Below are positions 19,346-54,314 of a stretch of DNA of 62,586 nt, in pieces. This stretch comes from Deltaproteobacteria bacterium SM23_61. Lineage in GTDB: Bacteria; Desulfobacterota; SM23-61. The notes beneath the pieces are model-generated. The model had not been told where the DNA came from. It saw only the letters and a program-made list of their open reading frames with translations, and ran no database searches. The stretch lies in the NCBI GenBank assembly GCA_001304105.1, contig LJUR01000002.1:1-62586 (forward strand), read 5' to 3'. Made by a program: the position numbers and the translations under genes. Each line of letters begins with the position of its first letter. Position 1 is the first letter of the stretch.

Positions 19346-20698
19346 TTATTCTAGGGTGAACACCTGTGGCTGATCCAGTTTCGTATTCAGGATTTCTAGG
19401 GCGCGCTGGATATATTTTTTCCGTAATTTTTTTTCCTTCTCACGGTCCAATTTGGTGTCCCCCAGGACGCTTGTCACATTGATTCCTTGCAGAATTCGGT
19501 TGACTCCTATCATTTTGCTCACCGAGGGAACGGCTGTGATATTGACTACTGGAAGCCCCACTCCTTCAATTTCTGATGCGATCGTTGCCCCGCAACGAGT
19601 ACTCGATCCTCAGGTCGAGGTGAGAATGACACCTCCTACCTTCGTGCTCTTCAGATCCTGGGCCATTTCTCTTCCTATTCTTTCGCACACACTGGCCGTA
19701 TTGGCATTGCCCGAGGTTGAATAAATAAAGGGATGAAGCTTGCCGACTAAGCCTTCCTTCTCCAGGTCCCGCATGGCATCGACGGGTACCAAGCGGTTGG
19801 GGTTTCCCAGCACGTGCAAAGGATAGTAGCCTGTATGCACGACTTCATAGTTTTCGGCCGAATAATTCTGGGGCAGAAATTGATCAATTTCATATTTGGA
19901 CCAAACTACATTACCCCTTCCCCGAAAACCATCCGGGTTTCCCTTCCATGTCAATCCTCCATCACTAATCAAAGCAATCTCGGCTTTGGTCAAATCCGCA
20001 ATGGGAGAAGGAGGGGGAATGGCTCTTTCCTTCACCTTTCCTGCCTCGGTTAGAAACGGTTTCCCCTGAATTTTGGCCAGCAGCATGTCAACGCCGCGGG
20101 CGGCGGCGGTTTTTTCCGTAAACTCATTCTTCAAGAGCCCTCTGGGGAAATAATCCCCTTCTTCCGGCCTGATGATGTTCTCCCCGGAAATCAGCCGAGT
20201 CCCTCTCTCCGGGGAAAGAATATGAAACGCCAGGTTTACCATCTTGGTCAAATCCTCGGCCATTTTGGCTGCGCTTTTTCCAGTGCGGCAAATGTAGACA
20301 TCTCGACGATATAATTCCACTCCCGGATTCTCGACAAACATGCCCGTGATCGCCGGAATAGCGAGCCTCTCCTGGACCTTCCTGCAAATTGCCCCGCAGG
20401 ATAAACCGTATCTTCCCGCTTCAAAAGCCGGGCCAGCGAAAAAGAGTTCCGGGGTGAAGGACGCGGCGAGCCTGACTCCATCTTCTGCTGCCTTTTCCAA
20501 ATTATCAGCAAAATAGTTGTCTCCGCAAATAATCGTACCAACGACTTCCCCCTTCTCTCCCAGAATTTTCTGCAAGGCCATTCCAGGGCCTACCGGGCCT
20601 TTTTTTACCATGAAGGGCAAATCCGCCTTCTCCTCTTGTCCCACCTGACCGAAAAACTGATTCAGGTAGTGGACAACCTTCAATTTGCTCGGAGTCAT
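19346..20698 (-). CDS. GrdB/GrdF/GrdH/PrdB-family selenoprotein B (reductase component B), with Sec encoded by TGA at 19610-19612
   Basis: ORFs 19610..20698 and 19346..19561 are in the same frame and separated only by the TGA. Read-through gives GGVILTST-U-GSSTRCGATIASEIEGVGLPVV, which is the family's Sec-site signature. Confidence 0.9.
19583..19597 (-). promoter_or_regulatory. SECIS-like hairpin for the GrdB-family gene
   Basis: The RNA reads CGUUGC-GGG-GCAACG and begins 12 nt after the UGA. Confidence 0.6.
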
Positions 20699-20727
20699 CT
20701 TTTTCCCCCTTTCGCTCAGGGCGGCAT

Positions 20728-22026
20728 TTAATATTCACAAGCAATGATTTTCGCCCCCCCGAGATGGTTGTACAGCCCGGCTAGGAACATCCCTTCCACT
20801 TCCAGTACAGGATCGCCCGCTTTTTGCTTGAACTCAGGGTTATAAACCAAGGTTTCAGATGTCCCCCCCAATATTTTCAAATCACCCGGCCGTGGTAGAC
20901 CAATCCTTTCCAGGGTTTGGCCCAGGTTCACGACCGCATTCAATACTTCTGTATCGAACAGGAGCGAATCGGAGCGTGTTCCGACGCTGTGGCCGAAATT
21001 GACGAAGACAGTTGTTTTTACGCCCAGGGCTTCGCAGGCCTCTCCCACCATACTGATATCCACGTGGGGCATTCCGCCATGTACCTTGGTTAAAATCGCC
21101 CCGTCCGCTCCCAGATAATTAGCGATCAGATTTCCCACCATATTGGCCATTCTCTGCCGTTGAATGGGATCGACGGTGGCGACCCCGATCACAGTTCCGG
21201 CAAACCACAATTCTTTCCCGTGCCGTTTGTACAATTCAAGGATTAGAGGATGATTTTGGATGCTGTACGTTTCCATCTTTCGAATGGTGTGGGTGCTGAC
21301 CAAGGCACCGTCCAAAATCTCATTGGGATGGAGGAGGGTTGGCATCAGGTCAGTGACATCTCTCCCATAAAGCATCGGATCCCCAATTCCCTTATAATCA
21401 TGCTGGGGAGTATGGATTTGATAGTAATAGACAATCCTTGGAAGACTTCCCCTATTTTGGGAAAGGACCAGGGGGATATCCAAATCGAAAATTTCCACCT
21501 GATCGGGAGAGGTTCCAACGCTGCTCCGGGCTAGATAGACGGCTATTTTTAAGCCCGCCACTTTTAGAGCCGTTTCAAAAGCCCTCTCTTCGACACCCTC
21601 TGCTGGAATGGGATGGATAACGAGGTTTTGCATTTTTCCGTAGATTCCCCGGTCCGCCCCCAGTCCAAACATATCGATAACTGAGGAATAGAGTCGCTTG
21701 GAAAAGCTGTTGGACAGAACGACCGCAATTCCCCGCAAAGATCTCGTTTTTCCCTGCCCTGCAATTACCAGCTTCCCCAAATACCCCGGAAAATCCTCTT
21801 TTTCATGACCCAGCTTGCATCGAGGTTGGATTACATCGACCACGTTAACAATCCGCACCGGCTCGCCAGGGGAGGTAACATTTAGCTCTACCGATAGAAT
21901 CCGTTCGTCTCTCAGGATAATTTCTTCCAATTCCTTTAGATTTATGTACAAAACGTGATCTGATACTCCCGTATGGGTCCCGGGTCGTACAGCTTGGATA
22001 TCAATCGATTCGATTTCCAATCTCAT
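20728..22026 (-). CDS. GrdE/GrdG/GrdI-type glycine/sarcosine/betaine reductase component B alpha/beta proprotein
   Basis: Family-typical N-terminus MRLEIESIDIQAV...GVSDHVLYINLKEL and length. The ATG at 22026 is preceded by GGAGG at a 6-nt spacing. The longer ORF start (22062) lacks an RBS. Confidence 0.85.
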   Translation of the reverse strand: MRLEIESIDIQAVRPGTHTGVSDHVLYINLKELEEIILRDERILSVELNVTSPGEPVRIVNVVDVIQPRCKLGHEKEDFPGYLGKLVIAGQGKTRSLRGIAVVLSNSFSKRLYSSVIDMFGLGADRGIYGKMQNLVIHPIPAEGVEERAFETALKVAGLKIAVYLARSSVGTSPDQVEIFDLDIPLVLSQNRGSLPRIVYYYQIHTPQHDYKGIGDPMLYGRDVTDLMPTLLHPNEILDGALVSTHTIRKMETYSIQNHPLILELYKRHGKELWFAGTVIGVATVDPIQRQRMANMVGNLIANYLGADGAILTKVHGGMPHVDISMVGEACEALGVKTTVFVNFGHSVGTRSDSLLFDTEVLNAVVNLGQTLERIGLPRPGDLKILGGTSETLVYNPEFKQKAGDPVLEVEGMFLAGLYNHLGGAKIIACEY

Positions 22027-22301
22027 ATCCAGCCTCCTTTTCTCAACAATTGATATGGCCATCTATAAGAGCGGACAAGTTTAGGCCTTGCTTTCCCCGA
22101 ATGAAGCCCATCCCATTATCCATTTCCCCAAATTGAGCGATGGTATTGAGCCGTATGAAGGGATTGTTTCCAGGACGGGAATACTCCGGTTAAAATTATT
22201 ATGAACGGAGCTATGGAAATGATTTTCCTTTGTGTATCCATATTGCGTGCATCTCTATTTCAGGGTGCCACCGGCCCACTCCTCTTTCCCTGTTTCCTTC
22301 G

Positions 22302-22482
22302 GCTTGCAGGAAAGCGGGCATCATGGATTTCCGCCTCCATGATCTTAGGCATACCTACGCTTCGCATCCGGCCATGCTGGAAGTTCACAGCGCTTTAGGA
22401 ACTGTTTGGTTACAGGGCTCTGGCCATAACGCAGCGCCATTCCCACCCTGTGCCGGAGCAGTTACAGAACGCGGGGAAGTAA
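22302..22482 (+). pseudogene. C-terminal remnant of a tyrosine recombinase/integrase (frameshifted; N-terminal ~80% missing)
   Basis: KAGIMDFRLHDLRHTYAS (box II HDLRH) is followed, after a frameshift, by ITQRHSHPVPEQLQNAGK (compare MTxRYaHlxPexl). No catalytic N-terminal part is present. Confidence 0.7.
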
Positions 22483-22556
22483 GTGGATGGAGTGATTGGG
22501 GATAGGTAGGAAGCCTCCCTCTGTCTTTGCCCCGACATTCCCTCACAGTGGGAACA

Positions 22557-23225
22557 TTAAAGTTGTCCGGTCTTTCGATGCATTTCAGCGAAGCTCTTTC
22601 CCGCTTTCAATCCAGCAGAAAAATCCTTTTCCTCTTTTACAGTTTTTTTCGATTTTTCAAGAACTTCCACCGCCTTTTCCCGAGGAATGACAATAATACC
22701 GGTCCGATCAGCCACTATGACATCCCCGGGTCTGACCCGGATTCCTCCACATTGAATCTCCCCATTCATCTCCAGCATTTTTGTCCGCGTTTTCCCCGTG
22801 CGAGGAGTGAGGTATCGGGAAAAAACCGGAAAGTTCAGCTCTACGATTTCATCGGCATCGCGGGAACCGCCATCAATAACCACACCCTGGATTCCTTTCT
22901 CCTTGGCTGCAGTTGAAGCCAAATCACCCCACGTTGAAATTTCCTTTCCGCTATTATCAAATACCAGGATATCCCCCGGCTGGGCAGCATCGATGATTGT
23001 GCTGATTTTAAAGTCCTCAATCGGGTAAGTTCCCGCAAGCCCGGAAACTTGTTTGATTGTAAGTGCAGGACCCGCCAGTTTAAAGCCCTCTCTTACGGCT
23101 TTGATGCCGGAGACTAGGCAATCCAGTCCCATCTGGTCCAGTACATCTGAAATCGTACTGGTATTGACTGAACGGAATCCTTCTATGACCTCTTTGGGCA
23201 GACGTTCCACGGGCTTGATCTCCAT
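22557..23225 (-). CDS. RraA-family protein (RraA/HMG-CHA aldolase-like)
   Basis: TSTISDVLDQMG...GDILVFDNSG...STWGDLASTAAKEKGIQGVVIDGGSRD is typical of the RraA fold. Confidence 0.85.
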   Translation of the reverse strand: MEIKPVERLPKEVIEGFRSVNTSTISDVLDQMGLDCLVSGIKAVREGFKLAGPALTIKQVSGLAGTYPIEDFKISTIIDAAQPGDILVFDNSGKEISTWGDLASTAAKEKGIQGVVIDGGSRDADEIVELNFPVFSRYLTPRTGKTRTKMLEMNGEIQCGGIRVRPGDVIVADRTGIIVIPREKAVEVLEKSKKTVKEEKDFSAGLKAGKSFAEMHRKTGQL

Positions 23226-23376
23226 ATAGTTACCTCCCTATCAGGTTATTTTGTTAAAATCAGATATTCCAAGGCTTATCCTGAAAGTCATGTGGATGAT
23301 TTGAAGTCTTCCAGGGTCGGATCTTAACCTTGAAAAGCTCCCTAAAGAGCTTCATCTTCTCTTTCCCTACTTGCCA

Positions 23377-24120
23377 TCACGGTATTATCTGCGCTTCCAA
23401 AAAAGAAGGATCATGGCAAGCAAGCACGATATCCGCCAACCCCTTCACCAGGAAAACGCTTTCGAAACCATCTACCGCATTCAAATGAATACCTGGAGCC
23501 ACTACAGGGGTCAACTCTTTGAGTTCTTCAGATACTCCTTCGGGGGGGCCAAAGTTATCTTTTAGACAGCAGAACCCTGTTATGATCGCCTTCCCTTTCT
23601 CCGTATTTACGGCAACAGACATGGTTCCGGGAGTATGGCCCGGGGTCGGAATAAGTTCTATTCCCGGAAAGATTTCCTGATAGCCTTTGACTATGACGAA
23701 ATTCACTCCGGTTAACAGGCTCTTTTTATAAGTGGGAGCCAATATGGGATGAGGGGCATAAGCAAACCTCAATTCCTCCTCCTGAACCAGGACCTTTGCA
23801 TTCTTGCACTTCTGCATATTAGCGCAATGATCCCACTGGAGGTGGGTTTGTATGATGATATCTATATCCTTCGGTTTGAGCCCCACACTTTCCAGAGACT
23901 CTTCAAAGGAAAGAATTTCCTTTGCGGGTAATCCTCTTAACTCTTTCGCAAGCTTTGCCTCCGAAGCGGTGTCAACAAGAATATTCTTATCGGCTCCTTC
24001 TATATACCATACCACGTTAGGAACCTGAATCTTTTGGCCGTAATGAAACCGATACATAAGGACCGCCTTGTCAAGCTCCATTGAAGATAAAGGCAATACC
24101 TTGATTCTGTATGTTCTCAT
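23377..24120 (-). CDS. MBL-fold metallo-hydrolase (lactonase-like)
   Basis: THLQWDH (HxHxDH variant) and TPGHTPG motifs. AGGAGG RBS upstream of the ATG. Confidence 0.85.
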   Translation of the reverse strand: MRTYRIKVLPLSSMELDKAVLMYRFHYGQKIQVPNVVWYIEGADKNILVDTASEAKLAKELRGLPAKEILSFEESLESVGLKPKDIDIIIQTHLQWDHCANMQKCKNAKVLVQEEELRFAYAPHPILAPTYKKSLLTGVNFVIVKGYQEIFPGIELIPTPGHTPGTMSVAVNTEKGKAIITGFCCLKDNFGPPEGVSEELKELTPVVAPGIHLNAVDGFESVFLVKGLADIVLACHDPSFLEAQIIP

Positions 24121-24468
24121 GCTTTCATCCTCCTATATTTCGCTTCTGGTAGACGCGGATGATGACTCCAGGAAACCTGCCCTTGAACTCTATCCTTTCA
24201 GTCAATTTTAATTCATTACAGCAAAAAATGTACCTAGTTGTCAATGTATCAATTCTCCTCGGGTCGTGCCCATCAGGTATTGAATATTGCTCCCGCCAAT
24301 GGTGTGCGAAGTCGAGATTCGGCCACTCCCGCCCCTGTCTGCCAGATAAAGCATTGATCCATACGAATCTAGCCTTCAATCCCGTCTTGCCAAAATCCGT
24401 GAGAAATCCAATAGGATGATAAAAAGGGTTAGAAGCCTGGGGAATATCTTCTAGATCCTTGTAATGAC

Positions 24469-24513
24469 TGGTGGACGGTAATGGATTTGAACCTCTGACC
24501 TCCGGTATGCGAG
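24469..24513 (-). pseudogene. Decayed 3' fragment of a tRNA (Ala-like: CGC anticodon position, U70), preceded by a terminator-like hairpin
   Basis: 38/45 nt identical to the 3' part of the tRNA at 39774-39850. The T-stem no longer pairs. The flank (aaaaaggg-hairpin-ccttgtaatgac) is homologous to the flanks at 34385-34431 and 39722-39773. Confidence 0.7.
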
Positions 24514-24949
24514 GGTTTCAGTATGAGCCGGAAGACATCGATTTTATTCGCCTTTTATCATCTTATAGCCTATTAAATTCAACAACTTAGCATCGTCGGA
24601 CGGGCAAATCAATCCAGCATAGAACCGGCCCCTTGCCAACAACCATTCATTTCAATAGGCTCCTTACCATTTTTCAATCTAATCCAACCCCAGAGCGCAA
24701 AATTCAACTTTCCCTTTCATTATACAGCCGTCCCGGCGGGGCAGGAATTCCTCCCAGAAGCAGTAATTTGATGAAAAAATTTTTATTTTTGACGATAATT
24801 AGGACGAATAGCCTTAGAAAGATATATCCGCCAACTCTAGCGGGCGGAGAAATTTGGGGGCCGCCTGATCGATGAAAAACTGATGTGTTAGCCCGACTTT
24901 CCGGCGGTCAAGAATTTCAATTCAGATCAAAAATTGGGAGGGGGTTTCC

Positions 24950-25948
24950 ATGAAAAGATTGCTTTTGATCCTGACCCTGATTGTCTTTCAGCTGATAGCA
25001 TTTACGGTATGCCTGAATGCGAAGCAGCATGATAAAAGGGAACTCACAAACAAGGTCATGGAGCTGTCGGGAATGAATGACCAGATTCGCCAGATACCGG
25101 CTTTTGTCCAAATAGGCGTCTCCAGCCGAAAGGGGTCGACCCCCCCCGACTTATATAATATTCTTGAACCCGAAATTGTGAAAGCTTTTCAACCGGAAAA
25201 AATTCTAAAAGGGGTATCCAGGGAGATTGAAAACAAACTTGATTTAAGGACCCTACAAGATGTCCTCACCTGGCTCGAGTCTCCCCTGGGGCAGAAGATC
25301 ACCGCCATAGAGGAGAGCAACTCGACACCCGAAGCATTGCAGGGGATGAAAGAATTTGCCGCCTTGATGAAGAAAACACCGCCGCCCAAGAGGCGCTCAG
25401 ACCTGGTCAAAAGGTTCAACAGGGCGACGAAACCGGCAGAATGGATTGTCGAAATACAAATGTCCTCGATCCTTGCTTTGACAACGGCATTGAATTCCAG
25501 CCTGCCGAAAGAAAAACGGGGGAATCTAGCCGAGATAAGAAAAAAAATCGAGCAGCTCCGCCCGAAAGCACAGAAGGAGGCAGAGTCAAATTCGGTGATG
25601 GGTTCCTTCTACGCCTACAGAACGTTGACGGATGAAGAGTTTCAACGCTATGTTTTATTCGCAGAGTCCGCCAGCGCGAAACGCTTCCACAATGTTTTTC
25701 TGAATGCACTCAAAAATGAAATGCAAATGGCTTGTCTGAAGATTGGGAAATCTTTGGGCGAGAAAATAATAAAATTGCCTCGCGAGCAAGAGGTAATGGT
25801 TACCGGCAAGATTGTCGTACACTTGAAAGACGGTAGGACTCTGGTGTGGGATAACTACACGGAAAAGAACGACCGCTATTGCACATTTATTGCCGGCGGT
25901 GAGCTTTGTATAAGTAAAAGCGATGTAGCCTCTGTTGGGCGGAACTAA
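24950..25948 (+). CDS. Secreted hypothetical protein (332 aa)
   Basis: Signal peptide MKRLLLILTLIVFQLIAFTVCLNA, GGAGGGGG RBS, and no confidently recognised domain. Confidence 0.6.
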   Translation: MKRLLLILTLIVFQLIAFTVCLNAKQHDKRELTNKVMELSGMNDQIRQIPAFVQIGVSSRKGSTPPDLYNILEPEIVKAFQPEKILKGVSREIENKLDLRTLQDVLTWLESPLGQKITAIEESNSTPEALQGMKEFAALMKKTPPPKRRSDLVKRFNRATKPAEWIVEIQMSSILALTTALNSSLPKEKRGNLAEIRKKIEQLRPKAQKEAESNSVMGSFYAYRTLTDEEFQRYVLFAESASAKRFHNVFLNALKNEMQMACLKIGKSLGEKIIKLPREQEVMVTGKIVVHLKDGRTLVWDNYTEKNDRYCTFIAGGELCISKSDVASVGRN

Positions 25949-25969
25949 TAAAGGATTTCTCTCCCAATA

Positions 25970-26240
25970 TCTTCTCGTTGAGAAACTTGGAGGAATCTTC
26001 AAGGAAGCGAAAACTCCCTGTATGGCCTTGGCTCTTATCCCCACCCGTGTCCATAGACTGCCCCCTTATTTCAGATGAATCGATATAGCTTTGCGAGCAG
26101 CGCGGTAGGCCGGCTGAAAGCTCAAATGGAGGGAAACCGGCAGACAAAAAAAGCGCATCCAGAAAATCACAGAAAATCTCAATAAGGGTCAAGCCCAGAC
26201 CTATAGGGGGCGAAAAGGGTAAGCCTTGCCGATGGGCGGA
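25970..26240. repeat. Repeat element B (homolog of 17308-17600)
   Basis: See element A. In addition, a 12-mer TCTTGCCGAGAT (26284-26295) is identical to the start of the 88-bp eamA repeat. Confidence 0.7.
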
Positions 26241-26302
26241 AGGAAGGGGTTGGCATGGGAAACAGGCCAATATTTCCCATGCCTCTTGCCGAGATTTGAA
26301 TC

Positions 26303-27406
26303 TCAGAAGGTCACGATACTGCGGGCCACTTCGCCCTTGATGAGGTTATCATAAGCCTCGTTGATCTGGGCGAAAGGATATTTCCGGGTGAGAAGTTCAT
26401 CGAGTTTTAATTTCCCGGCTTTATACATTTCCATCAACATCATGGTGTCCTGCCGGATCCTGGCGGATCCATAGAGCGATCCGGTCAGCGTCTTTTCTTC
26501 GAATACGAGAGCCATGATGGGAACCGCTACTTCTTTCGTCAGGGGCACCACACCAACGGCCACGCACATTCCTCGTTTGGCCAGACAGTCGAAGGCCTGA
26601 CGGACCGTCTCGGGAGATCCTATCGCCTCGAAGGCATAGTCGACTCCCCGGCCGTCGGTCAAAGCCCTGACCGCTTCCACGGCATTCTTCTTCGAGGCGT
26701 CAACAAAATGGGTAGCCCCAAAAGTCTTAGCATAATCGAGCTTTTTCGCATTGATATCAACGGCGATGATCTTAGCCGCACCCGCAATCGCCGAGCCCTG
26801 GATGATATTCAACCCGATTCCGCCGGCTCCAAAAACGACCGAAGTACTTCCCGGCTTGACCTTGGCGCAGTTGATGGCGGCGCCGACCCCGGTGATGACT
26901 CCGCAGCCAAGGAGAACAGCAATCTCCAAGGGAAAATCCTGGGGGATCTTGAGGGCGGATCCCTCGGGAATCACCGTGTATTCCGAAAAGGTCGAGGCCC
27001 CGGCAAAGTGTTTGATTTCCTGGCCTTTGTACTTGAAACGGGTGGTCCCATCGAGGAGCTGGCCAGTCGAGCGGATCTGAGTGCCAGCCGGACAGAGGGC
27101 GGGGCGTCCATTACTGCAGTATTCGCAGATCCCGCAGGAAAGACGCCACATGACGATGATATGATCTCCGGGTTTCACGGCCGTCACCCCCGGCCCGACC
27201 TCAGCCACGATGCCGGAACCCTCGTGTCCGAGAATGGACGGAAAGGGAGCGAAGAGATGACCGGTCATGACATGATAGTCGCTATGGCAAATGCCTGCGG
27301 CGACCAGTTTGACGAGAACTTCCCCTGTATGGGGCTTCTCCACATCCACTTCTTGGATGTCCAACCTCTTTCCCGCTTCCCAAAATATCGCTGCTTTCGA
27401 TTTCAT
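26303..27406 (-). CDS. Zinc-dependent alcohol dehydrogenase (class III/medium-chain type)
   Basis: GICHSDYH, GHEGSGIV, and the structural-zinc Cys cluster CGICEYCSNGRPALC. The ATG at 27406 is preceded by GGAGG. Confidence 0.9.
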   Translation of the reverse strand: MKSKAAIFWEAGKRLDIQEVDVEKPHTGEVLVKLVAAGICHSDYHVMTGHLFAPFPSILGHEGSGIVAEVGPGVTAVKPGDHIIVMWRLSCGICEYCSNGRPALCPAGTQIRSTGQLLDGTTRFKYKGQEIKHFAGASTFSEYTVIPEGSALKIPQDFPLEIAVLLGCGVITGVGAAINCAKVKPGSTSVVFGAGGIGLNIIQGSAIAGAAKIIAVDINAKKLDYAKTFGATHFVDASKKNAVEAVRALTDGRGVDYAFEAIGSPETVRQAFDCLAKRGMCVAVGVVPLTKEVAVPIMALVFEEKTLTGSLYGSARIRQDTMMLMEMYKAGKLKLDELLTRKYPFAQINEAYDNLIKGEVARSIVTF

Positions 27407-27611
27407 AATGGAACCTCCTTTCATAGTATCTATGGTGCTGCGGTCGGTTCGGGACTATCATACTAAAAAGGAAATAAAAAAGGGGAATTTTTTTCATGAA
27501 AAAGAATAAATAAAAAAAGGCTGATTCCTCAAGGGCTTGAGCTTTGGACTTCGTCTCTTCGGCAAAAAATACTCCATGGGAAATAGCTTCATTATGCCCC
27601 TAAATGGAACA

Positions 27612-27670
27612 ATTTTCTCGAAAGATTTGGAGGAAATCTCAAGGAAACAAAGCCCCCCTTTTTAGCCTAA
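27612..27670. repeat. Repeat element C (partial homolog of the 5' segment of element B)
   Basis: ttctcgaaagatttggaggaaatctcaaggaaacaaag here matches tctcgttgagaaacttggaggaatcttcaaggaagcgaaa at 25970-26010. Confidence 0.6.
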
Positions 27671-27833
27671 GCTCCTAGGCCCAGCCACTTTTCAAACCAC
27701 GAAACTGCAAAAGTAAAGGTCGTCCCCGAAATTGACTACAAAAGCAAACAGGCGTATATTAAAACCCGCTGCAGGTCAGCCGGTTTGAGGCCTCAAAGGA
27801 GTTTTAATTTCAATAATAATATGGAGGAGTAAA

Positions 27834-44440: not shown

Positions 44441-44475
44441 AAAAAACCCCCTCCGGAAAAGGAGAGGGGGTTTTT
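44441..44475. terminator. Bidirectional intrinsic terminator between convergent ade and ABC-2 permease genes
   Basis: AAAAAA-CCCCCTCC-ggaaaa-GGAGAGGGGG-TTTTT. Confidence 0.75.
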
Positions 44476-44512
44476 GAGCCTGCAACCTGAAACCTGCAAC
44501 CTGAAACCTAAT

Positions 44513-45478: not shown

Positions 45479-46233
45479 GATTGCCCCTCCTTGAAATACT
45501 TCATGTAAAGCTCTTCCAATGTGTACTGCCCTTCCTCGAGTCCAAGCTTTTCTTTGGCCAGGTCCTCGATCCGGCCCACGGCGACCATGTTCCCTTTGAG
45601 CATGATCCCGATCCGGGAGGAGATCTTCTGGACCTGGTCCAGGAGATGGGAGGACAAGAAGACGGTGATTTTCTTGTCCCGGCTCAGAGACTGGATCAGA
45701 TTCAGCATCTGGAGCGACCCGTCGGGGTCCAAGCCCAGGGTCGGTTCATCGAGAAAGACCACCTGGGGATTTTTCAGCAGGACTTCCGCAATCCCCAGGC
45801 GCTGCCGCATGCCCCGGGAGAACTCCCCCACCTTCTTCTTCGGCTCCGGTTTCAGGTCCACCAGGTTCAGCAGCTCTTCGATTTTGACCAGGGCCTCTTC
45901 GTCCGGAATTCCGTTCAACCGGCTGATGAACAGGAGGTTCTGGACCGCATTCATGTCGTCATAGAAACCCACGTTTTCGGGAAGATAGCCCACCACCCGC
46001 TTGACTTTCAACGCCTCCCGGGTGGGGTCGAAGCCGCATACCCAGGCTCTCCCCGAAGTGGGCTCGCTCAGGCCCAGCAACATGAGGAGCGTGGTGGTCT
46101 TGCCGGCTCCGTTCGGCCCCAGAAACCCGAAAACTTCTCCCTCGTTGATCTTGAGGGTCAGGGCGTTTACGGCCGTCTGTTCCCCGTATACCTTGGTCAG
46201 GTCCTGGGTCTCGATGATCGTCTGTCCGTTCAC
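45475..46233 (-). CDS. ABC transporter ATP-binding protein
   Basis: Walker A GPNGAGKTT, signature FSRGMRQRL, Walker B VVFLDEPT. GTG start 5 nt after GGAGGAG. Confidence 0.9.
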   Translation of the reverse strand: MNGQTIIETQDLTKVYGEQTAVNALTLKINEGEVFGFLGPNGAGKTTTLLMLLGLSEPTSGRAWVCGFDPTREALKVKRVVGYLPENVGFYDDMNAVQNLLFISRLNGIPDEEALVKIEELLNLVDLKPEPKKKVGEFSRGMRQRLGIAEVLLKNPQVVFLDEPTLGLDPDGSLQMLNLIQSLSRDKKITVFLSSHLLDQVQKISSRIGIMLKGNMVAVGRIEDLAKEKLGLEEGQYTLEELYMKYFKEGQS

Positions 46234-46234
46234 G

Positions 46235-47458
46235 TTATCTCCTCCCCAGCCACAGGAACAGCGCGCCCAGCCCGGCAATGACCAGCACGATGATGATGAT
46301 TCCGATCCATCCCCAGGCGGCGGAAGTTTTTACCGACACCCTCATTTCCACTGTTTTGCTGCTGCCTTTCTCCCCGTCGACGGAAAGACCCACCGAATAA
46401 TCACCCACCAGGGCCTGACCCGCTGGAGTAATGATTACCTCGACCTGCTTCATGGCATCCGGTTCGAGGGCGTCGATCTTCTCCGGCTTGAACTCCACCT
46501 TCCAGTTCTCCGGCTTGAAAGAGCTGAAACTGATATTCTTGTTCACCGCCGAGCCGGTGTTCTTCACAAAAAGCGACATCTGGGCCGCCTTGCCGGCGAG
46601 AGCCTCCAGAGACAGAAGGCCGGTGGGAGTCCCGGCATCGAGCTTATAGATTCCCGTGAGAATGACCGTCAGCTTCACATCCTGTTTCTTATCCCCCGAA
46701 GTAATCCCGACGACGATGGGGAAGGAACCCGCCTTGGCATCCCTGGGCGGGGTCACTTCCACGGCCACGTTCTGGCTGGAGCCGCCTTTGATCCGGAAGC
46801 TGGAGATCTGCTTCTGCTCGTAGGCCGGCTTGAAGCTGACCTCCCATTTGGCCGGGGCCTGGGCGGAGAGGTTGAAGTTCCGATCCGCTTCACTCTTGTT
46901 GTTGACTTCCAGGGAGAATTCGAACTTGGCGTCCGTCTGCCCCTTGAGGACGGGGTAGGAGGTGGTTACGGTGAAGTCTTCCCCCATCGCTGTCCTTTCG
47001 CGCACGGTCACGTTGATCTTCTGGGTGGAGGTAAACCTCCCGTCCTCGGTCTGAGCGTCGATCTGGAAATGGTACTCTCCGGGCTTGACCTTCTTATCCG
47101 GCTCGGCCAGGAAGGTCAGGGTCCGGGCCTTGGTGGCCGGCACCGGAACAGCAGCGACAATGAAATTGGGGGCCTTGAGGGAAGCCCTCCAGCCCTTGGG
47201 AACCTGGCTGATTTTCATGGAAATATTCTCGTCCCTTTTTCCCTTATTCTCCGCGGTAAGATCCATGCGCACGGATTCGCCCGGAGGTACGATGACCCCG
47301 GAATATTCGGTGTAAATGGCGATTCCCCTCTCTGGACGAGGGATAACATCTTTATCCTTGTCCGACTGGGCCGTCGCCGTCCCGCCGATCGACAATGACA
47401 ATAGAATAAGGATAGAGAAAATCAAAACCGATTTCAGCCCAATGCTTCCCCGACGCAT
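46235..47458 (-). CDS. Exported, C-terminally membrane-anchored protein with repeated beta-sandwich (NEW3/CARDB-like) domains
   Basis: Signal peptide, three similar ~100-aa modules (...KPGEYHFQID..., ...KAGSFPIVVG..., ...LVGDYSVGLS...), and a C-terminal TM helix. Confidence 0.6.
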   Translation of the reverse strand: MRRGSIGLKSVLIFSILILLSLSIGGTATAQSDKDKDVIPRPERGIAIYTEYSGVIVPPGESVRMDLTAENKGKRDENISMKISQVPKGWRASLKAPNFIVAAVPVPATKARTLTFLAEPDKKVKPGEYHFQIDAQTEDGRFTSTQKINVTVRERTAMGEDFTVTTSYPVLKGQTDAKFEFSLEVNNKSEADRNFNLSAQAPAKWEVSFKPAYEQKQISSFRIKGGSSQNVAVEVTPPRDAKAGSFPIVVGITSGDKKQDVKLTVILTGIYKLDAGTPTGLLSLEALAGKAAQMSLFVKNTGSAVNKNISFSSFKPENWKVEFKPEKIDALEPDAMKQVEVIITPAGQALVGDYSVGLSVDGEKGSSKTVEMRVSVKTSAAWGWIGIIIIVLVIAGLGALFLWLGRR

Positions 47459-47808
47459 GTTCGTCCTCCTCCAATTTTTTTAAATTTAATTCCGGTAATC
47501 TTTTTGAGGGTGTAGTGAATTATAACTCTTGGCAGTCCCTCTGGAGCTCGGTTACCCTCTCAAAAACAACCTTAAAATAATAGCAAAAGAGAAATTTGTC
47601 AAGGCTATTTCCGACTCTCCAAGGGAATCGGGCTGGATTTTGGCCTTTCCCTTCCACCCCCGAAAAGAAAACCCCAAGCTTACTCTTCCTGGCAGGCTTT
47701 AGGGGGTTGAGGCCCCCAAAATTCTTAAACTTTTATCAGCTCTACCTTGAAGCTATAGAAGGCCGAACTTTCCCTGTACCGAGTCCTGGGGAGCATCCTT
47801 GCAGATTG

Positions 47809-48693
47809 CTAGGCCGCTCCGGCTTCTTTCAGCTTTTCCACGATGGAATCCTTGTCCCAGGCGCCCACATGGCGGTACATTTCCTTGCCCGTCTTGTCAA
47901 AAAAGATCAGGGTAGGAATGAGTTGGACCCGGTATTCCCGGGCGAGGTCTTTGTATTCGTACACGTCGATGATGAGAATTCTGGCCTTCTCGGCAAGCTC
48001 TTTTTCGATCTCTTTCAAAATCGGTCGAAGCTGTCGGCAGGGCATGCAGGAATTGGCGCCGAAGTCCACCAGAAGCGGCTTCCCGCTCTTGATCGCCTGC
48101 TGAAATTCCTCATTGGTGTTGGTGGGGGGCGGGAGGGCGGTTAAATCCTTCAGGCGGCTCTCATTGATGTCGATTTTCGCCTTATTCCTTAAAGAAGCCA
48201 GGTATTCCTCGACCTTTTCCTTCCCCTTGAGCTCCCGGATGGCCTCCTCGATCATCGGGGTCGCCTCGGCCAGGGACTTCTTTCCCATCTGGTCCTTGTG
48301 CTGCTTGTAGACTTCGGCCACCTCCTTGGGGTCGACCTGGATCTTGTCCAGGACTTCCTTCTTCACCAGGTTCTGCATGATGGACAGGTCAATGTCTTCC
48401 CCCCTGGCCTCAGGATCGGCCTTCACCCCCAATCTCTTCGCTTCCTGCAGGACGACTTCCTTGGTGATGACCTGGTCGAGATATTGCCTGGGCTCTTCCC
48501 GGAATACTTCCTGGAAGGGCGCGGGGATTTTTCTCAGCTCCCGGTCGAACTGGGCAACGGTGATCTTCCGGTCGTTGACCATGGCCAGGACTTGGCGCTC
48601 CGGGTTCCAGGTGAAAAATTTCAGATAACCGAATAGGATGACTCCAACCACCACCGCCAAGACCGGAATGATCCATTTCCAATGCTTTTTCAT
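47809..48693 (-). CDS. Membrane-anchored SurA-N-like chaperone domain fused to a thioredoxin domain (CMPC)
   Basis: N-terminal TM helix, then VNDRKITVAQFDREL... (SurA_N-like). The C-terminus is LLVDFGANSCMPCRQLRPIL...IPTLIFF (thioredoxin). Confidence 0.8.
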   Translation of the reverse strand: MKKHWKWIIPVLAVVVGVILFGYLKFFTWNPERQVLAMVNDRKITVAQFDRELRKIPAPFQEVFREEPRQYLDQVITKEVVLQEAKRLGVKADPEARGEDIDLSIMQNLVKKEVLDKIQVDPKEVAEVYKQHKDQMGKKSLAEATPMIEEAIRELKGKEKVEEYLASLRNKAKIDINESRLKDLTALPPPTNTNEEFQQAIKSGKPLLVDFGANSCMPCRQLRPILKEIEKELAEKARILIIDVYEYKDLAREYRVQLIPTLIFFDKTGKEMYRHVGAWDKDSIVEKLKEAGAA

Positions 48694-48932
48694 TCAACGA
48701 TTCCTCTCATCCTCACGGATAAAATCTCCCCCTCACCCTTGCCCTGAGGCTGTCGGATTATCAAAATCATAAGCCTGGTTCGGGAGTTAAGAAATTGCGG
48801 ATCGATAAGATCGGCATCCCTGACAATACATCAACGAATCTTAACCCAGATTAGCAGGAATGTGAGGATTTGTCCATGAAAAGCCGGAACGATTCATCGA
48901 ATTGCCCCCAGCAGGGTTTATCGATTTCTTCC

Positions 48933-50135
48933 TCAATCCTTATCGACCCCCGCCGCGCTGATCCACCCCTTCACTTCTTCATCCTCGGGAAGAGCCTTCT
49001 CCATAGTTTGCAACTTGAAAAGGAAGTGGTTCCCCTGGATCCCGGCCTCTTTCGCCCGTTTCAGTTCTTCCTGGAGGGCAGTTCTTTGACGGGTGATCTC
49101 GCGGATTGACCGCTCACGGTGGGGGTTGACCTTATCGGGTTGCCTCTTCCTGGCTGTCTCCAGGCCGCGAATATAAAGGTCGAGGCCGTCGATCCTTTCC
49201 TGAAGGTACTGGACCTCTCCGGCGTCCCGGAAGGGCTTGGATGGGTCTTCCAGGGTCAACTGCAGCCGGCCCACATACATCCCTTTGCGGGAAGACTGAA
49301 AAATGTGGGTCATTCCGGCCCGAACGGCTCTCCGGGTAAAGCGTCCTTCATGACCTCCCAGGATGAAGTGAATCCCCGGTAGCTCTTTGGCCACCCTCTG
49401 GTCCTTGTAAAGGCCCAGGTCGGAAATAATAATGGCCAGGTCGGCTTTTCCCTTGATTTTCCCCAGGGTCTCCCTGGCCGCATCGATCGGGTCGGCGATC
49501 AGGATCCTTCCTTCATTGGCCCGCTGGATGGCCGGGCTGATCTCCGGTCCTGATTCGGGCGGCAAAAGCCCGACGAAAGCGATCCGCACCCCCCCCACTT
49601 CCTTTATCACATAGGAAGGAAAGATGGGGGATTTGGTGGAAGGATCCAGAAGGTTGGCAGATATGAGGGGAAGTCCCTGGGAATATTCCTGCCGCAGGAA
49701 GTCCACGCCCTGCAGGAGGTCCAGGCACCCCACGTTCACCGCCGCAGCGCCCATGTGGCGGTAGGCGCGGCCGATGATCTGGGCCTTCTTCAGCGCCTTC
49801 TCAGAATCGGAATCGTTTCGAAAGCTGAAGAAAAGATCCCCGGAATCCACCACCAGGGTTCGCTGATTTTCCCTTTGAACTTTCTCCACCCAAGCCACCC
49901 GCCGGGCCAGACCGCCCAGCACCCGGTCCCCTCAGGTCGGGCAGGGGAGGATGTAGCCGGTCACGTTGTTGGTGTGGAGAATCAGAATCTCCGTCTCTCC
50001 TGATTCGGCAGGCGGGGCGGGAAAAAGAAAAAGGGACCAGGCAAAGATGAAAGAAAGGATCCCCCAAAAACTCTTGGTTGCCGGAAACCATTTTTTCAAA
50101 GCGATGACCTCATCTTTGAATCTTTTCAATATCAT
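48933..50135 (-). CDS. Exported degenerate 5'-nucleotidase/metallophosphoesterase-like protein with predicted selenocysteine (C-P-T-U; TGA at 49932-49934)
   Basis: ORFs 49932..50135 and 48933..49922 share a frame across the TGA. Read-through gives ILILHTNNVTGYILPCPT-U-GDRVLGGLARRV...VVDSGDLFFS. The paralog at 52923..54314 has a TGA at the homologous position. The downstream ORF has no ATG or signal peptide of its own. Confidence 0.7.
49903..49918 (-). promoter_or_regulatory. SECIS-like hairpin
   Basis: The RNA reads UGGGC-GGUCUG-GCCCG and starts 13 nt after the UGA. The GGUCU loop resembles the E. coli fdhF SECIS apical loop. Confidence 0.6.
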
Positions 50136-50204
50136 CGGAATTATTGTAACACAACTTTACCGATCGCCGGCAGGAGCAGGCCGCCGAGGCGTGATGAGTC
50201 GCCC

Positions 50205-50621
50205 CTACCCTTCCTGGGCGGACAAAAAGCCGATGATTTTTTCCCGGATTTGATCCCTCAACTTCCGGAAGAAGGAGATCTTCTCCTCCTCAGTGCCCTT
50301 GACGGTCGCGGGATCGGGAAAGCCCATGTGCATCCTCCGCGTTCCGCCGAAGAAAACCGGGCAGCTTTCCGCCGCGTGATCGCACAGAGTTATGACAAAA
50401 TCGAATCTCTCATCCGCAAACTCGTCAATCGACTTGGATCGATGCCGGGAAATATCGATTCCCGCCTCTTTCATCGCAGCGATGACCAGGGGATTAACGG
50501 AAGAGGGCTCTGTCCCGGCGGAGAAAGCCTGCACCTTCCCCGCCAGGTCATGATTGACCAAGCCCTCGGCCATCTGGCTCCGGGCGCTGTTATGGGTGCA
50601 GATGAAGAGAACCCGTTTCAC
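50205..50621 (-). CDS. arsC: Arsenate reductase, thioredoxin-coupled LMW-PTP type
   Basis: CTHNSARS P-loop plus the downstream Cys pair (LCDHAAESCP). Confidence 0.9.
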   Translation of the reverse strand: MKRVLFICTHNSARSQMAEGLVNHDLAGKVQAFSAGTEPSSVNPLVIAAMKEAGIDISRHRSKSIDEFADERFDFVITLCDHAAESCPVFFGGTRRMHMGFPDPATVKGTEEEKISFFRKLRDQIREKIIGFLSAQEG

Positions 50622-50738
50622 TCTATGCTTCTCCTTCTATTCATCGCAATCGGAATCCCCATTTTCCCCTTTGCCGGTTGTCGGTTCCGGCTTTCAGGGT
50701 TCGCACGGGCATTTTTCTCCTATGGTTTTTTAATTTCC

Positions 50739-50972
50739 TTACTGGACCATTTTCTTGATCTCTTCCACGGAGGGAAGTTTCCCGGCCACTTTCACGGTTC
50801 CATCCACCACCAAGGCCGGGGTGATCATGACCCCGTAGCTGCTGATCTGTTTGATGTCTTTTATCTTCAAGACTTCGGCCTCGATGCCGAGTTCTTTGAC
50901 CGCCTGCCTGGCTCGATCCTCGAGCTGGTTGCACTTGGGTCAACCCATTCCCAAAACTTCGACTTTTTTCAT
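50739..50972 (-). CDS. Thioredoxin_3-type small redox protein (redox-active disulfide protein 2 family) with a U-x-x-C active site (TGA at 50940-50942)
   Basis: Not in the ORF track, because the TGA is at codon 11. The translation is MKKVEVLGMG-U-PKCNQLEDRARQAVKELGIEAEVLKIKDIKQISSYGVMITPALVVDGTVKVAGKLPSVEEIKKMVQ. The family consensus is GxGCxxC. Confidence 0.85.
50911..50925 (-). promoter_or_regulatory. SECIS-like hairpin
   Basis: The RNA reads GCUCGA-GGA-UCGAGC and starts 14 nt after the UGA. Confidence 0.55.
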
Positions 50973-51042
50973 TTTTTCCTCCCTAAATCTTGTATTGGAC
51001 ACAGATGAACACAGCGCGGCAGAGCCGCAACCCAAACGGAAT

Positions 51043-51092
51043 CCCCCCCTCCCTCCCCTCCCCCCTCGAGGGGGAGGGTTAGGGTGGGGGGG
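51043..51092. repeat. C-tract/G-tract palindromic element (same family as 44362-44410)
   Basis: ccccctccctcccctcccccctcgagggggagggttagggtggggggg. It is flanked by ACACRGAT-type short repeats (50996-51016, 51184-51217) and a CTCTGTG unit (51271-51293). Confidence 0.8.
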
Positions 51093-51305
51093 ATGCTTTT
51101 TGCCCAACAGAACTTAACGACTTTGCAAAACAGTAGTAGAGATTGACCTCACGCCTTACTCATCACTTTTCACTGCTTTTATTGGGACACGGATGAACAC
51201 GGATACACGCAGATAAGGATCAATCAAAAAAAAATAAAAGATTTTGCCAAATAGCGCGTAATCTTTTTCTTTGTGCTCTCTGTGACCTCTGTGCTTAAAT
51301 CGTTT

Positions 51306-52358
51306 TCAGAAAATGAAATTCCCGGTGAACCATCCTACCAAGGTCCCCAGAATCGTAATCAAGGGAACATAAACCAACCCCTTTTTCAGGCCAAAGACCT
51401 TCAGGATGGCCAGCATGTTGGGGAGGCTCATCCCGGGGCCGGTCAGGAGAAGGGCCAGGGCCGGCCCTTTGCCCATGCCCATTTCCATCAGCTTATGAAC
51501 GAAGGGTGCTTCGGTCATGGTGGCCATGTACATGATCTGGCCGATCAATGTGGCCAGGAAAGAAGGGAATATGCCCGACCCGCCCAGCCAGCTCTCGATC
51601 CACTGCTGGGGAAGAAGCTTCCCGATCACTCCGACGACGAACACCCCTCCCAACAACAAGGGAAAGATGATCCGGACAAACCACCAGCTCTCAGTCATCC
51701 ACTGGCGCATTTCCTCACCGGATTTGACCTTCCAGGCATAAAGGGCGACGATGACCATCCCCGCAGCCCAGACATACACTTTATGCAGGAAGGGCCCCTT
51801 TTGGACAAGGTAATTGGGGGCCAGAAGGTCGGCTACGATCAAGAGAAGGAGGATGACATCCTTGCGGGCCACGATCCTTTTCCCTCCAGGGTGGATGTCC
51901 ACTGCGGTCACTCTCTTGATCTCTTCCTTGCGGAAGGCGAGACTCATGACCCAACCCACCACGAAGGCCATGGCCAGGGCTGAAAGGACTCGGACCACCA
52001 CCATCTCCGTCCCCAGGATAGCCCCGGTATAGACCAGGGCCAGGATGTTGGCCGCCGGGGCCACCCAGAGAATGATGAAGGCCGCCCCGATCCCGCTTCC
52101 GCCGTAATACAGGCCGCTGGAAACGGGGATCACCGTGCAGGAGCAGGCGGCCACGAAAAAACTGCCCCCGCTGGCCAGGGTGAAGGATCTCAGTTTATTG
52201 GCGGCACTTCCCAGGTAATAAATGATGGTTTCCTTGGATATAAACGTAACCATGGCCCCGGCCAGAAGGAAAGCCGGTATCAGGCAGGTAATCACATGAA
52301 GGGCGATGTAATCCTGTAAAGCTTGCAAACCGGCATAAATCAATTCCCAGAAGAACAT
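51306..52358 (-). CDS. Predicted permease (ArsP/DUF318-type, PF03773-like)
   Basis: Multi-TM protein with ...VITCLIPAFLLAGAM...FFVAACSCTVIP... typical of this permease family. ATG at 52358 (alternative GTG at 52409). Confidence 0.75.
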   Translation of the reverse strand: MFFWELIYAGLQALQDYIALHVITCLIPAFLLAGAMVTFISKETIIYYLGSAANKLRSFTLASGGSFFVAACSCTVIPVSSGLYYGGSGIGAAFIILWVAPAANILALVYTGAILGTEMVVVRVLSALAMAFVVGWVMSLAFRKEEIKRVTAVDIHPGGKRIVARKDVILLLLIVADLLAPNYLVQKGPFLHKVYVWAAGMVIVALYAWKVKSGEEMRQWMTESWWFVRIIFPLLLGGVFVVGVIGKLLPQQWIESWLGGSGIFPSFLATLIGQIMYMATMTEAPFVHKLMEMGMGKGPALALLLTGPGMSLPNMLAILKVFGLKKGLVYVPLITILGTLVGWFTGNFIF

Positions 52359-52407
52359 TTTCTTGCGCTTCCTTTTCCCAATTTTGATGATCTCGTGAAA
52401 AGTCCTC

Positions 52408-52484
52408 ACTCCGGTGAAAACCGGAGTCCAGGATATTTATAGACCTTTGAAAATACAGGATTCCGGCTTCCGCCGGAATGACGG
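52408..52484. repeat. Double-hairpin REP-like element (GGAATGACG / CGTCATTCC family)
   Basis: ctccggtgaaaaccggagtccagga...caggattccggcttccgccggaatgacgg. Related copies lie at 55289-55372, 56807-56877, 57731-57805 and 62541-62586. Confidence 0.8.
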
Positions 52485-52522
52485 GAAGGATGGTCTTAGG
52501 ACTTTTACGAGCTCATCAATTT

Positions 52523-52846
52523 TTATATTTGCGCCAGGACCTTTCTTTGCTCCATCAGCTCCCGCTTCAGGAGCAGTCCCACTTTGTCCAATATCTCAAA
52601 GATTTCCGGGCCTTTGACCTTCACCATCACCTTGACCCCGTCTTTGCGGGTGGTGATCAGGTGGCTCTTCTGCATCGTGGAAATGTGCCGGGAAATATTG
52701 GACTGTTCCCCGTTGATGGCCGGCACAATTTCACAGATACATCTCTCCCCGTGGCGGAGCAGTTCCAGGATCTTCAAGCGCGTGGGCTGGGCAAGAGCTT
52801 TCAGGACTTCCGCCTTTAAATAAACCGCCCTTTCTTGCATATTCAT
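52523..52846 (-). CDS. arsR: ArsR/SmtB-family metalloregulator
   Basis: LKALAQPTRLKILELLRHGERCICEI...SNISRHISTM (HTH with the CxC metal site). Confidence 0.9.
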   Translation of the reverse strand: MNMQERAVYLKAEVLKALAQPTRLKILELLRHGERCICEIVPAINGEQSNISRHISTMQKSHLITTRKDGVKVMVKVKGPEIFEILDKVGLLLKRELMEQRKVLAQI

Positions 52847-52922
52847 TCTCCATGCATTTATGATTAATTAATCATAAATGCAAAAAAAATATGAGTCAAG
52901 CGATTTCTTAAACTCGGTCCCT

Positions 52923-54314
52923 TCACTTCGAGGCTGGGCAGCGCACTTTCGTGAGGGAGGGGGCGTAATCGAAGTTGGGGCTCTTGGCCGGGTTGTGGCA
53001 GAGGAGGCACTGCTTTTCGCCCACGGGGGGAAGCTTCTTCCCATCTTCTGGATGTCCCCTCCCGGGCCCATGGCAGGATTCACACTGGACATTCTCCAGC
53101 ACATCCCCAAAGCCGGAAACCTCCCCGAATCCGGTGGTATGGCAGGGAAGGCAGGTGTGGTCTCTTTCTCTCTTTTCACCGACCAGGGTTTGATAGGCCT
53201 TGGCATGGCCGGTCTTTTTCCAGTTCTCGTGCTGCGGCTGATGGCAGGAAAGGCAGGATGCCCCACCCATGTAATCGGAGACCGGGTAGGCATAGGTACC
53301 CTTTTGCATCCAGGGATCTTTTTCTGGGGAGCCGTTTTTCTTTTCCGCAAAATGCAGGGGCTTGGAGTCAGCCCGGAACTGGTTCACCAGTTTGGCCGTT
53401 TGGGGGTGGTCCTTATAGAAATCCCGTAGAGTTATGATCTGGTAATTGGACAAGAGGCGCGTTTCGTCCGGTTTCTCCTTGAGGAAAAACTCCATCTGCC
53501 CGAGATACTCTCCCCGGGTCCCGGCGGTGAGGATCTGGGCGTTATTGACCTCCACCGGCTGCCTTTTAAGCCCGCGTTCATGCCCGCTGACCACGAAGTA
53601 AACCTCCCGGAACGTTTCGGCGAGTTTCCGTTGCTCACTCTCATCCATGTGGGTAATAGCAATGATGACTTTGCTTTTTTTCTTTTTCAACTCACCGATC
53701 ACCTGCCTGGCCGCCTCGAGGGGGTCGGTTAGCCGATAAGCCGCTTTGTCATGGGGGTCCAGGCTTCCGGAAAAGCGGTTTGAAAGAAGCCCGAAAAGCC
53801 CGACCCGGATGCCCCCCTTTTCCTTGATGAGGTAAGGCCGGAACACCGGCTTTTTTGTCTTCAGGTCCTGGAGGTTGGCGAGGAGAAAGGCGAATTTCGC
53901 CTTTTGGCTCATTTTCTTCAGTTCTGCGATCCCCCAGGAGAGATCCACCTCCCCCGGAGTGAAGGCATCGTATCCCATGAGGTTGTAGGTTTGCAGGAAT
54001 AGGTTCGCCTTCAGGGCGGTAAGGTCCCGGTCTCTTTTGGGCAGGCCAAAAATTTCATGCCCGGCGGAATAGAGAAGGTCCCCGGAGTCCACCAAAAGGA
54101 CATTTTTTTTGTCTTTGCGCAGCTTTTCCAGGAAGGAAGCCCGCCTGGCCAGACCGCCAAGCTTGCCCCCCCCTCAGCCGCAGGGCTCGTACTCGCCGTA
54201 GAGGTTCGAGCTGAAGACCAGGGTGATGATCTGCTCCGGCTTCACCCCGGGGGGCTGCCCCCAGGAATTGAAGGGGATCAGGCAAAGGAAGAAAAAAATC
54301 AAAAGTCTTTTCAT
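52923..54314 (-). CDS. Exported degenerate metallophosphoesterase-like domain with predicted selenocysteine (C-G-U; TGA at 54174-54176), fused to a C-terminal tetraheme cytochrome c
   Basis: The frame from ATG 54314 gives MKRLLIFFFLCLIPFNSWG(signal)...VFSSNLYGEYEPCG-U-GGGKLGGLARRA...LLVDSGDLLYS and continues into ORF 52923..54095. The C-terminus has CLSCH, CLPCH, CESCH and CLLCH. Confidence 0.75.
54145..54160 (-). promoter_or_regulatory. SECIS-like hairpin
   Basis: The RNA reads UUGGC-GGUCUG-GCCAG and starts 13 nt after the UGA. Geometry and loop match the paralog. Confidence 0.6.

Follow-up and report, generated by a model that had tools for sequence, protein, structure and literature searches.

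Four genes of a Thermodesulfobacteriota contig with in-frame UGA codons and probable bacterial SECIS hairpins

The 62,586-nt stretch of contig LJUR01000002.1 of Deltaproteobacteria bacterium SM23_61 (here called the window, that is, the whole stretch of DNA that was analysed) contains four genes, all on the minus strand, in which an in-frame TGA is followed by an RNA hairpin. The sites were found by comparing open reading frame (ORF) lists made under table 11 with lists in which TGA was read as selenocysteine (Sec, U), combined with a hairpin scan. It is very probable that the four hairpins are bacterial selenocysteine insertion sequence (SECIS) elements and that the four UGAs are Sec codons. 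In fact, the SelB-dependent reading proposed in a first-pass annotation of this DNA is supported by the geometry of the hairpins, their rarity, the insertion machinery, the families of the encoded proteins and the distribution of Sec and Cys among homologs, and it is hairpin, open frame and homology taken together that carry the argument. The mechanism is already known, and so are the families; the bacterium is selenoprotein-rich and of the sulfate-reducer type, its phylum (Thermodesulfobacteriota) is one in which selenoproteins are expected, and the finding is an annotation catch, correct but ordinary. The four elements and the genes that contain them, designated A, T, C and F, are the following.

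19582..19612, minus strand: SECIS A; UGA 19612-19610, spacer 11 nt, hairpin UCGUUGC-GGG-GCAACGA (19598-19582), loop at 18 nt
50911..50942, minus strand: SECIS T; UGA 50942-50940, spacer 14 nt, hairpin GCUCGA-GGA-UCGAGC (50925-50911), loop at 20 nt
54143..54176, minus strand: SECIS C; UGA 54176-54174, spacer 11 nt, hairpin GCUUGGC-GGUCUG-GCCAGGC (54162-54143), loop at 18 nt
49900..49934, minus strand: SECIS F; UGA 49934-49932, spacer 10 nt, hairpin UGCUGGGC-GGUCUG-GCCCGGCG (49921-49900), loop at 18 nt; as minus-strand DNA, TGCTGGGC-GGTCTG-GCCCGGCG
19346..20698, minus strand: gene A, GrdB-type reductase selenoprotein B, 450 aa, U363 in LTST-U-GSSTRC; frame 19349-20698, TAA stop 19346-19348
50739..50972, minus strand: gene T, MTH895/ArsE-family thioredoxin-like selenoprotein, 77 aa, U11 in GMG-U-PKC; frame 50742-50972
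52923..54314, minus strand: gene C, UshA-like PCGU selenoprotein, 463 aa, U47 in EPCG-U; frame 52926-54314, true TGA stop 52923-52925
48933..50135, minus strand: gene F, UshA-like paralog, 400 aa, U68 in C-P-T-U, lacking a cytochrome domain; frame 48936-50135, true TGA stop 48933-48935

The four UGA sites listed in the first-pass annotation, each with a downstream hairpin, are all present in the sequence scan. The apical loops it gave (GGG, GGA, GGUCUG and GGUCUG) are exact, whereas the offsets (12, 14, 13 and 13 nt) and stem lengths (5-6 bp) that it listed describe only the inner cores of longer helices: the full stems have 6-8 bp and are uninterrupted (7, 6, 7 and 8 bp for A, T, C and F, respectively), and SECIS C can be extended by a lower helix (minimum free energy, MFE, -29.3 kcal/mol). 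The distance from the UGA to the loop, which is 18, 20, 18 and 18 nt in the same order, is a more uniform measure than the offset of the stem. The claim of a consistent spacing holds for these four sites, all at 18-20 nt, but Sec genes genome-wide cover 16-25 nt with a mode of 18, so there is no strict rule. Furthermore, C and F are paralogs with 31% identity, and the four sites are therefore not all independent.

The elements were compared with the SECIS of Escherichia coli fdhF, whose sequence is found inside the fdhF gene in 5,419 genomes of E. coli. When folded by the procedure used for the four sites, fdhF presents a GGUC loop 18 nt past the UGA, a distance shared by A, C and F, the loop of site T being 2 nt further from the UGA; as in fdhF, all four hairpins are located within the coding region, immediately 3' of the in-frame UGA. 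The SelB-dependent minimal upper stem-loop of fdhF begins 11 nt after the UGA, and the same spacer is found at A and C, with 10 nt at F and 14 nt at T, where the likeness is only partial. At site A, the 11-nt spacer is accompanied by a 17-nt hairpin, as in fdhF. The loops of C and F contain GGUC, whereas those of A and T differ, being GGG and GGA. Another difference regards the stem, which is interrupted in the fdhF fold and perfect at all four sites: a bulged U in the upper stem of fdhF matters for E. coli SelB, and none of the four has it. In the consensus for bacterial SECIS (bSECIS) elements, a loop of 3-9 nt with G in the first two loop positions is carried by a stem of 4-16 bp, 16-37 nt from the UGA (PMC13188914). 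All five structural constraints of this consensus (bSECISearch), including the location in the coding region, hold at the four sites, which stand at the short end of the distance range (18-20 nt).

The frequency of such hairpins was determined with a loose pattern (stem of at least 5 bp, spacer of 10-14 nt, loop of 3-6 nt starting with GG) and with a strict one (stem of at least 6 bp and a GG-starting loop 18-20 nt after the UGA). The former follows 1.7% of the 125,216 TGA triplets of the genome, and an identical share (1.7%) of the TGAs closing open frames of 150 codons or more; the latter follows 0.38% of all TGA triplets (470 of 125,216). The first-pass annotation had indicated that an equal frequency after random TGAs would speak against its reading; the pattern is not equally common, with 0.4-1.7% versus four out of four, an outcome expected by chance with a probability of about 1e-8 or less, even with both paralogs counted once. 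In the window, the strict pattern follows 10 of 2,139 TGA triplets and six of these matches are spurious, in short or antisense frames, so the hairpin by itself is not diagnostic of a Sec codon; among the ten, long open frames on both sides of the TGA are found only at the four sites. Moreover, six window genes that truly end in TGA, C and F among them, have no such hairpin after the stop, so that within one mRNA the recoded UGA has the element and the terminating UGA has none. Other read-through candidates of the window were rejected, as no hairpin was found at 26303 (alcohol dehydrogenase-like), 51306 (permease), 55433 (437-aa protein), 23377 and 4169, nor in long frames with multiple TGAs; in most of them the coding potential after the TGA is poor.

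The machinery for Sec insertion, whose identification had been suggested in the first-pass annotation, is present: selA, selB, selD and tRNA-Sec are all encoded in the same metagenome-assembled genome (MAG; 88% complete, 7% contamination, 286 contigs). The tRNA-Sec, with anticodon tca, is located at C115:8614-8711 (ARAGORN; Rfam RF01852, 70.3 bits versus 47); ARAGORN detected no tRNA-Sec in the window itself, the gene being on another contig. The selB gene, on contig C187, is full length and includes the C-terminal mRNA-binding extension (TIGR00475, 369 bits versus 242, model positions 1-580 of 581, in a 660-aa open frame), selA matches TIGR00474 with 635.7 bits, and selD matches TIGR00476 with 373.6 bits and has one in-frame TGA of its own. 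Genomes of the same genus have the same TGA-containing genes, and the trait therefore belongs to the lineage. By analogy with E. coli and with the Moorella model, SelB-GTP carrying Sec-tRNA(Sec) would bind the G-starting apical loop and the upper stem through its C-terminal domain, and the spacing of 10-14 nt to the base of the stem and 18-20 nt to the loop would place the tRNA at the A site when the ribosome meets the UGA. The codon would then be decoded as selenocysteine instead of a stop, and the predicted products would be a GrdB-type reductase subunit, an ArsE-type thioredoxin-like protein (UxxC) and two UshA-like paralogs (CxU and CxxU).

The comparison with Cys homologs, also proposed in the first-pass annotation, gave a concordant picture, since all four proteins are collinear through the TGA with known (seleno)protein families, in which relatives have TGA or Cys at the same codon. 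Gene A matches over its full length TIGR01918, the model of selenoprotein B of glycine, sarcosine, betaine and D-proline reductases, with 443.5 bits (cut-off 65.45), residues 7-447 aligning across the TGA with positions 1-430 of 431; it also matches PF07355, and a GrdE-type partner gene is directly upstream. Its scores are far under the cut-offs of the substrate-specific equivalogs (GrdF 442 versus 800, GrdH 408 versus 775, GrdB 402 versus 602). The motif given for the reductase selenoprotein B family is UxxC (PMC13188914), while gene A has TST-U-GSSTRC, with a Cys six residues past Sec. Gene T, located between an ArsP-like permease gene and arsC, scores 108.5 bits against TIGR00412 (cut-off 62) and 96 bits against PF13192. 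It resembles the MTH895/ArsE family (TIGR00412; Pfam Thioredoxin_3) both in the redox motif near the N-terminus, where U stands in place of the first Cys of CxxC (UxxC), and in the ars-type context (ArsR, ArsP-like permease, ArsC); compared with the Cys members of the family, the Sec form is found only in the closest relatives and Cys in the more distant ones.

The other two proteins are UshA-like. Gene C, with 336.6 bits against NF041198 (cut-off 275), encodes a signal peptide ahead of the UGA and a C-terminal cytochrome c domain with four CXXCH motifs (Pfam matches), and shares the eponymous PCGU (CxU) of NF041198, the 'UshA-like (seleno)protein' model; gene F has CPTU instead. In its type of motif (CxxU) gene F agrees with NF049981, 'UshA-like (seleno)protein family 2', but it is below the cut-offs of both NCBIfam models (NF041198, 221.8 versus 275; NF049981, 78.1 versus 140). 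Unlike gene C it has no cytochrome c tail, and it is best named an unassigned UshA-like paralog. UshA-like (CxU, and CxxU in family 2), GrdB and thioredoxin-like proteins are known prokaryotic selenoprotein families (PMC2398784, PMC13188914), and UshA-like selenoproteins of COG0737 were reported in the Global Ocean Sampling survey (PMC2398784).

Comparison with homologs links the hairpin to the codon. Most of the 40 relatives searched have UshA-like homologs with a single TGA, located, in the sequences examined, at the same codon ahead of the LGGLA motif; taking the genes together, dozens of homologs, with identities as low as about 30%, have the TGA at the corresponding codon, and always exactly one. 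TGA is also found in orthologs of gene F (L044, L062-L064), and SECIS C is kept in 25 distinct homologous sequences. In 28 aligned UshA-like sequences, some from proteins only about 30% identical, GGC-GGT-CTG-GCC is almost invariant, and in particular the third-codon positions in the stem (GGC, GCC) do not vary, in contrast with the codon at the 3' end of the loop, which is variable in its third position. In this alignment 90.8% of the cells are paired, versus 84.0 +/- 1.2 in shuffled alignments, none of 500 of which reaches the observed value, and 50% or less when the partners are slid. Where the clade of C has a U:A pair, that of F has G:C, both of the substitutions involved being synonymous (CTT to CTG in a Leu codon, AGG to CGG in an Arg codon). 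In UshA paralogs that are not Sec proteins the GGxAR motif is likewise present, written with varying Gly and Ala codons; L057, a Cys homolog, has GGA GGT CTC GCA and no stem. Among the orthologs of gene T, all seven Sec forms examined keep the hairpin, its closing pair changing from A:U to C:G, whereas most of about 20 Cys homologs (TGT/TGC) have none; the few with a stem have 4-8 bp with -5.0 kcal/mol or weaker, versus -6.8 to -7.4 kcal/mol in the Sec forms. The GrdB-like gene was found in only two of the 40 relatives, both with the TGA followed by the identical 20-nt sequence ACTCGTTGCGGGGCAACGAT, at a protein identity of 42-55%. The hairpin is conserved and covaries only where the codon is TGA, and is lost, or in a few cases weaker, where it is Cys.

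Several observations weigh against the proposed interpretation. The genes of the machinery are on other contigs of the MAG, and SelB binding and Sec insertion at the four sites are what we infer by analogy with the characterized systems. A search of the window with Rfam at gathering thresholds returned one tRNA-Val and no SECIS family, a result that is, however, uninformative. The MFE z-scores versus shuffled sequences are unremarkable for A (-0.86) and F (-0.80), with -2.5 and -3.2 for the other two; they do not discriminate at two sites and therefore were not used as a main argument. Because the hairpin stretches also encode conserved peptide motifs (LGGLARR in C and F, TRCGAT in A), part of the conservation of the DNA is driven by the protein. 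Finally, real covariation is scarce, being limited to two pairs with double changes, which are probably single events.

On these grounds it could be argued that the UGAs are Sec codons and that the hairpins are by-products of conserved peptides in G+C-rich coding sequences, with another signal directing the recoding. Besides the overlapped motifs and the z-scores of A and F, this explanation can count on the six unrelated TGAs of the window that also show the pattern. Nevertheless, the synonymous sites of the stem are invariant only in genes with TGA, the non-Sec paralogs and Cys homologs using other codons and forming no stem; compensatory double changes are observed in UshA-like and thioredoxin-like genes and in the lgt gene discussed below; and the geometry equals that of E. 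coli fdhF. We therefore regard it as very unlikely.

It is even more improbable, indeed hardly credible, that the TGAs are ordinary stops and that the genes are split, truncated or pseudogenes with downstream frames open by chance. TGA is, in fact, the commonest stop of the genome, ending 44% of the open frames of at least 300 codons (1,307 of 2,959), and public gene callers end gene A at this point. However, the family models are collinear across the TGA, a single TGA recurs at one codon in distant homologs, others having Cys there, and in gene C the four CXXCH haem motifs, which call for a signal peptide, would be left without one, as it lies ahead of the TGA. A reassigned code, with TGA as a sense codon for Trp or Gly (tables 4 or 25), has a practically negligible probability: apart from the frames that are open under TGA read-through nothing speaks for it, and it is already contradicted by the TGA-ended long frames just mentioned, by selA, selB and most family matches being free of internal stops, by the alignment of the recoded positions with Cys in redox motifs and not with Trp or Gly, and by the presence of tRNA-Sec, and would need widespread in-frame TGA in housekeeping genes.

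The interpretation of the UGAs as Sec codons has a direct consequence for annotation. The first-pass annotation had predicted that standard gene callers would mis-annotate this genome, and the public gene calls bear this out: in ENA and JGI the GrdB-like gene appears as a 362-aa product cut off at the UGA, with a spurious antisense gene of 89 aa placed on top of the 87 codons of its real C-terminus. The same truncated 362-aa product is found on eight metagenome contigs (L120-L122 are ENA/JGI contigs identical to window 19613-20698). Under the standard code the four genes are truncated, split or missed, the evidence from public calls regarding one of them, gene A. SECIS-aware annotation is needed for this Thermodesulfobacteriota lineage, and the genes provide clean examples of an RNA element within a coding sequence under selection at synonymous sites. 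A similar truncation may have affected a family model: Pfam PF07355 (GRDB, 347 positions) stops at residue 362, just before Sec, and the NCBIfam model runs 87 residues further; the sequences on which PF07355 is based appear to have been cut short at the UGA.

Four Sec genes in 62 kb had also been taken to indicate a selenoprotein-rich organism, and this expectation was supported by the identification of about 16 further credible Sec genes besides selD, through a genome scan, checks against NCBIfam and family searches. The scan looked for a TGA with a hairpin and with coding potential before and after it. It is incomplete and yields some false positives; it demanded a hairpin and used crude coding scores, and gene T and selD, for instance, escaped it. 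The further candidates include two FdhA-type proteins (one with 862 bits and one TGA, the second a molybdopterin oxidoreductase), a DsrK-like Fe-S protein (UGH), five C-GCAxxG-C-C proteins, a CoA-disulfide-reductase-like protein, and IscA/HesB, SelW-like, glutaredoxin-like, OsmC-like, DsbA-like (UPWC) and Lgt proteins; together with SelD, all of them except lgt are found on contigs C250, C11, C59, C174, C282, C280, C176, C145, C64, C24, C55, C102, C129 and C181 of G000. Two genes found by family search, with no hairpin criterion, have the element: selD has CUCCAGG-GGA-CCUGGAG with the loop at 20 nt, and fdhA has CCGUCGCC-GGUCU-GGCGAUGG with the loop at 18 nt. Thermodesulfobacteriota are among the most selenoprotein-rich phyla (2026 review, PMC13188914). 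Some matches of the scan were discarded: the one at C46:55997 (+) is an antisense frame of the 55433-56746 gene, and those at C25:10984, C132:784 and C226:2753 consist of two adjacent genes in the same frame and are not Sec genes.

Among these candidates, lgt, encoding prolipoprotein diacylglyceryl transferase, is located outside the window at C203:5236-5844 (+) and matches TIGR00544 with 147.8 bits (cut-off 118.9). It has an in-frame TGA at C203:5647, in GRLGCFSAG-U-CYG, and among the loci compared (L108-L119) the TGA is kept in 10 of 16 same-family relatives, with Cys in 5 of 16 and in all the more distant ones. The hairpin, CCCACGG-NGGUN-CCGUGGG, begins 12 nt past the UGA and its closing pair covaries (A:U, G:C, C:G). 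The 2026 selenoproteome review does not list Lgt, and the searchable literature has no paper that ties it to selenocysteine; Sec-Lgt may be an uncatalogued selenoprotein family.

The GrdB/GrdE-type pair of the window (19346-22062, minus strand) looks orphan, its nearest named partners being the sarcosine GrdG and the fluoroacetate reductase FarE. The grdA gene was not found in the 88%-complete MAG, a weak negative, as control genomes are also without grdA. The pair sits in a stretch of 44-49% G+C, with flanks of 52-59% (composition of the 10-40 kb region), and the region may have been horizontally acquired, or the contig may be chimeric. Beside the GrdB-like gene of a relative, outside the window, locus L096 (G004:C496, minus strand, offset 744) has an in-frame TGA in KTLVFYCS-U-PNEE, followed by a 5-bp hairpin, and its product is rhodanese-like by eye.

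The UshA-like selenoproteins have VFSSNLYGE (gene C) and LHTNNVTGY (gene F) in place of the IHTNDLHSH of canonical paralogs (G000:C282:6947-7750), with Sec about 10 residues past this motif. Judging from these sequences, they seem to have lost the metal-ligand motif of metallophosphoesterases, a hint that their chemistry is something other than the hydrolysis of phosphoesters.

Three of the four Sec genes (C, T and F) are found within about 6 kb on one strand (window 47812-55055, minus strand), around an ars-type operon. The order of the genes is a DsbA-like Thioredoxin_4 protein, the UshA-like cytochrome c protein (Sec), ArsR, an ArsP-like permease, the ArsE-like thioredoxin (Sec), an ArsC of the low-molecular-weight protein tyrosine phosphatase type, the UshA-like paralog (Sec) and a SurA_N-thioredoxin fusion. 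UshA-like and thioredoxin-like genes are neighbours also in the relatives G001 (C10), G008 (C4) and G012 (C7), and their proximity on one contig is observed in relatives of three genera, which suggests a functional link between UshA-like selenoproteins and metalloid or thiol redox handling. The 6-kb cluster comprises the UshA-like cytochrome c protein, ArsR, the ArsP-like permease, the Sec-containing ArsE thioredoxin, ArsC and the second UshA-like protein. A broader proposal, tentative and in our opinion rather doubtful, is that the CPTU-type UshA-like proteins (gene F and its orthologs) are a third subfamily without a model, that the cluster works as one selenium-dependent periplasmic module for metalloid or thiol redox reactions, and that the lineage hosts uncatalogued Sec families, such as Sec-Lgt.

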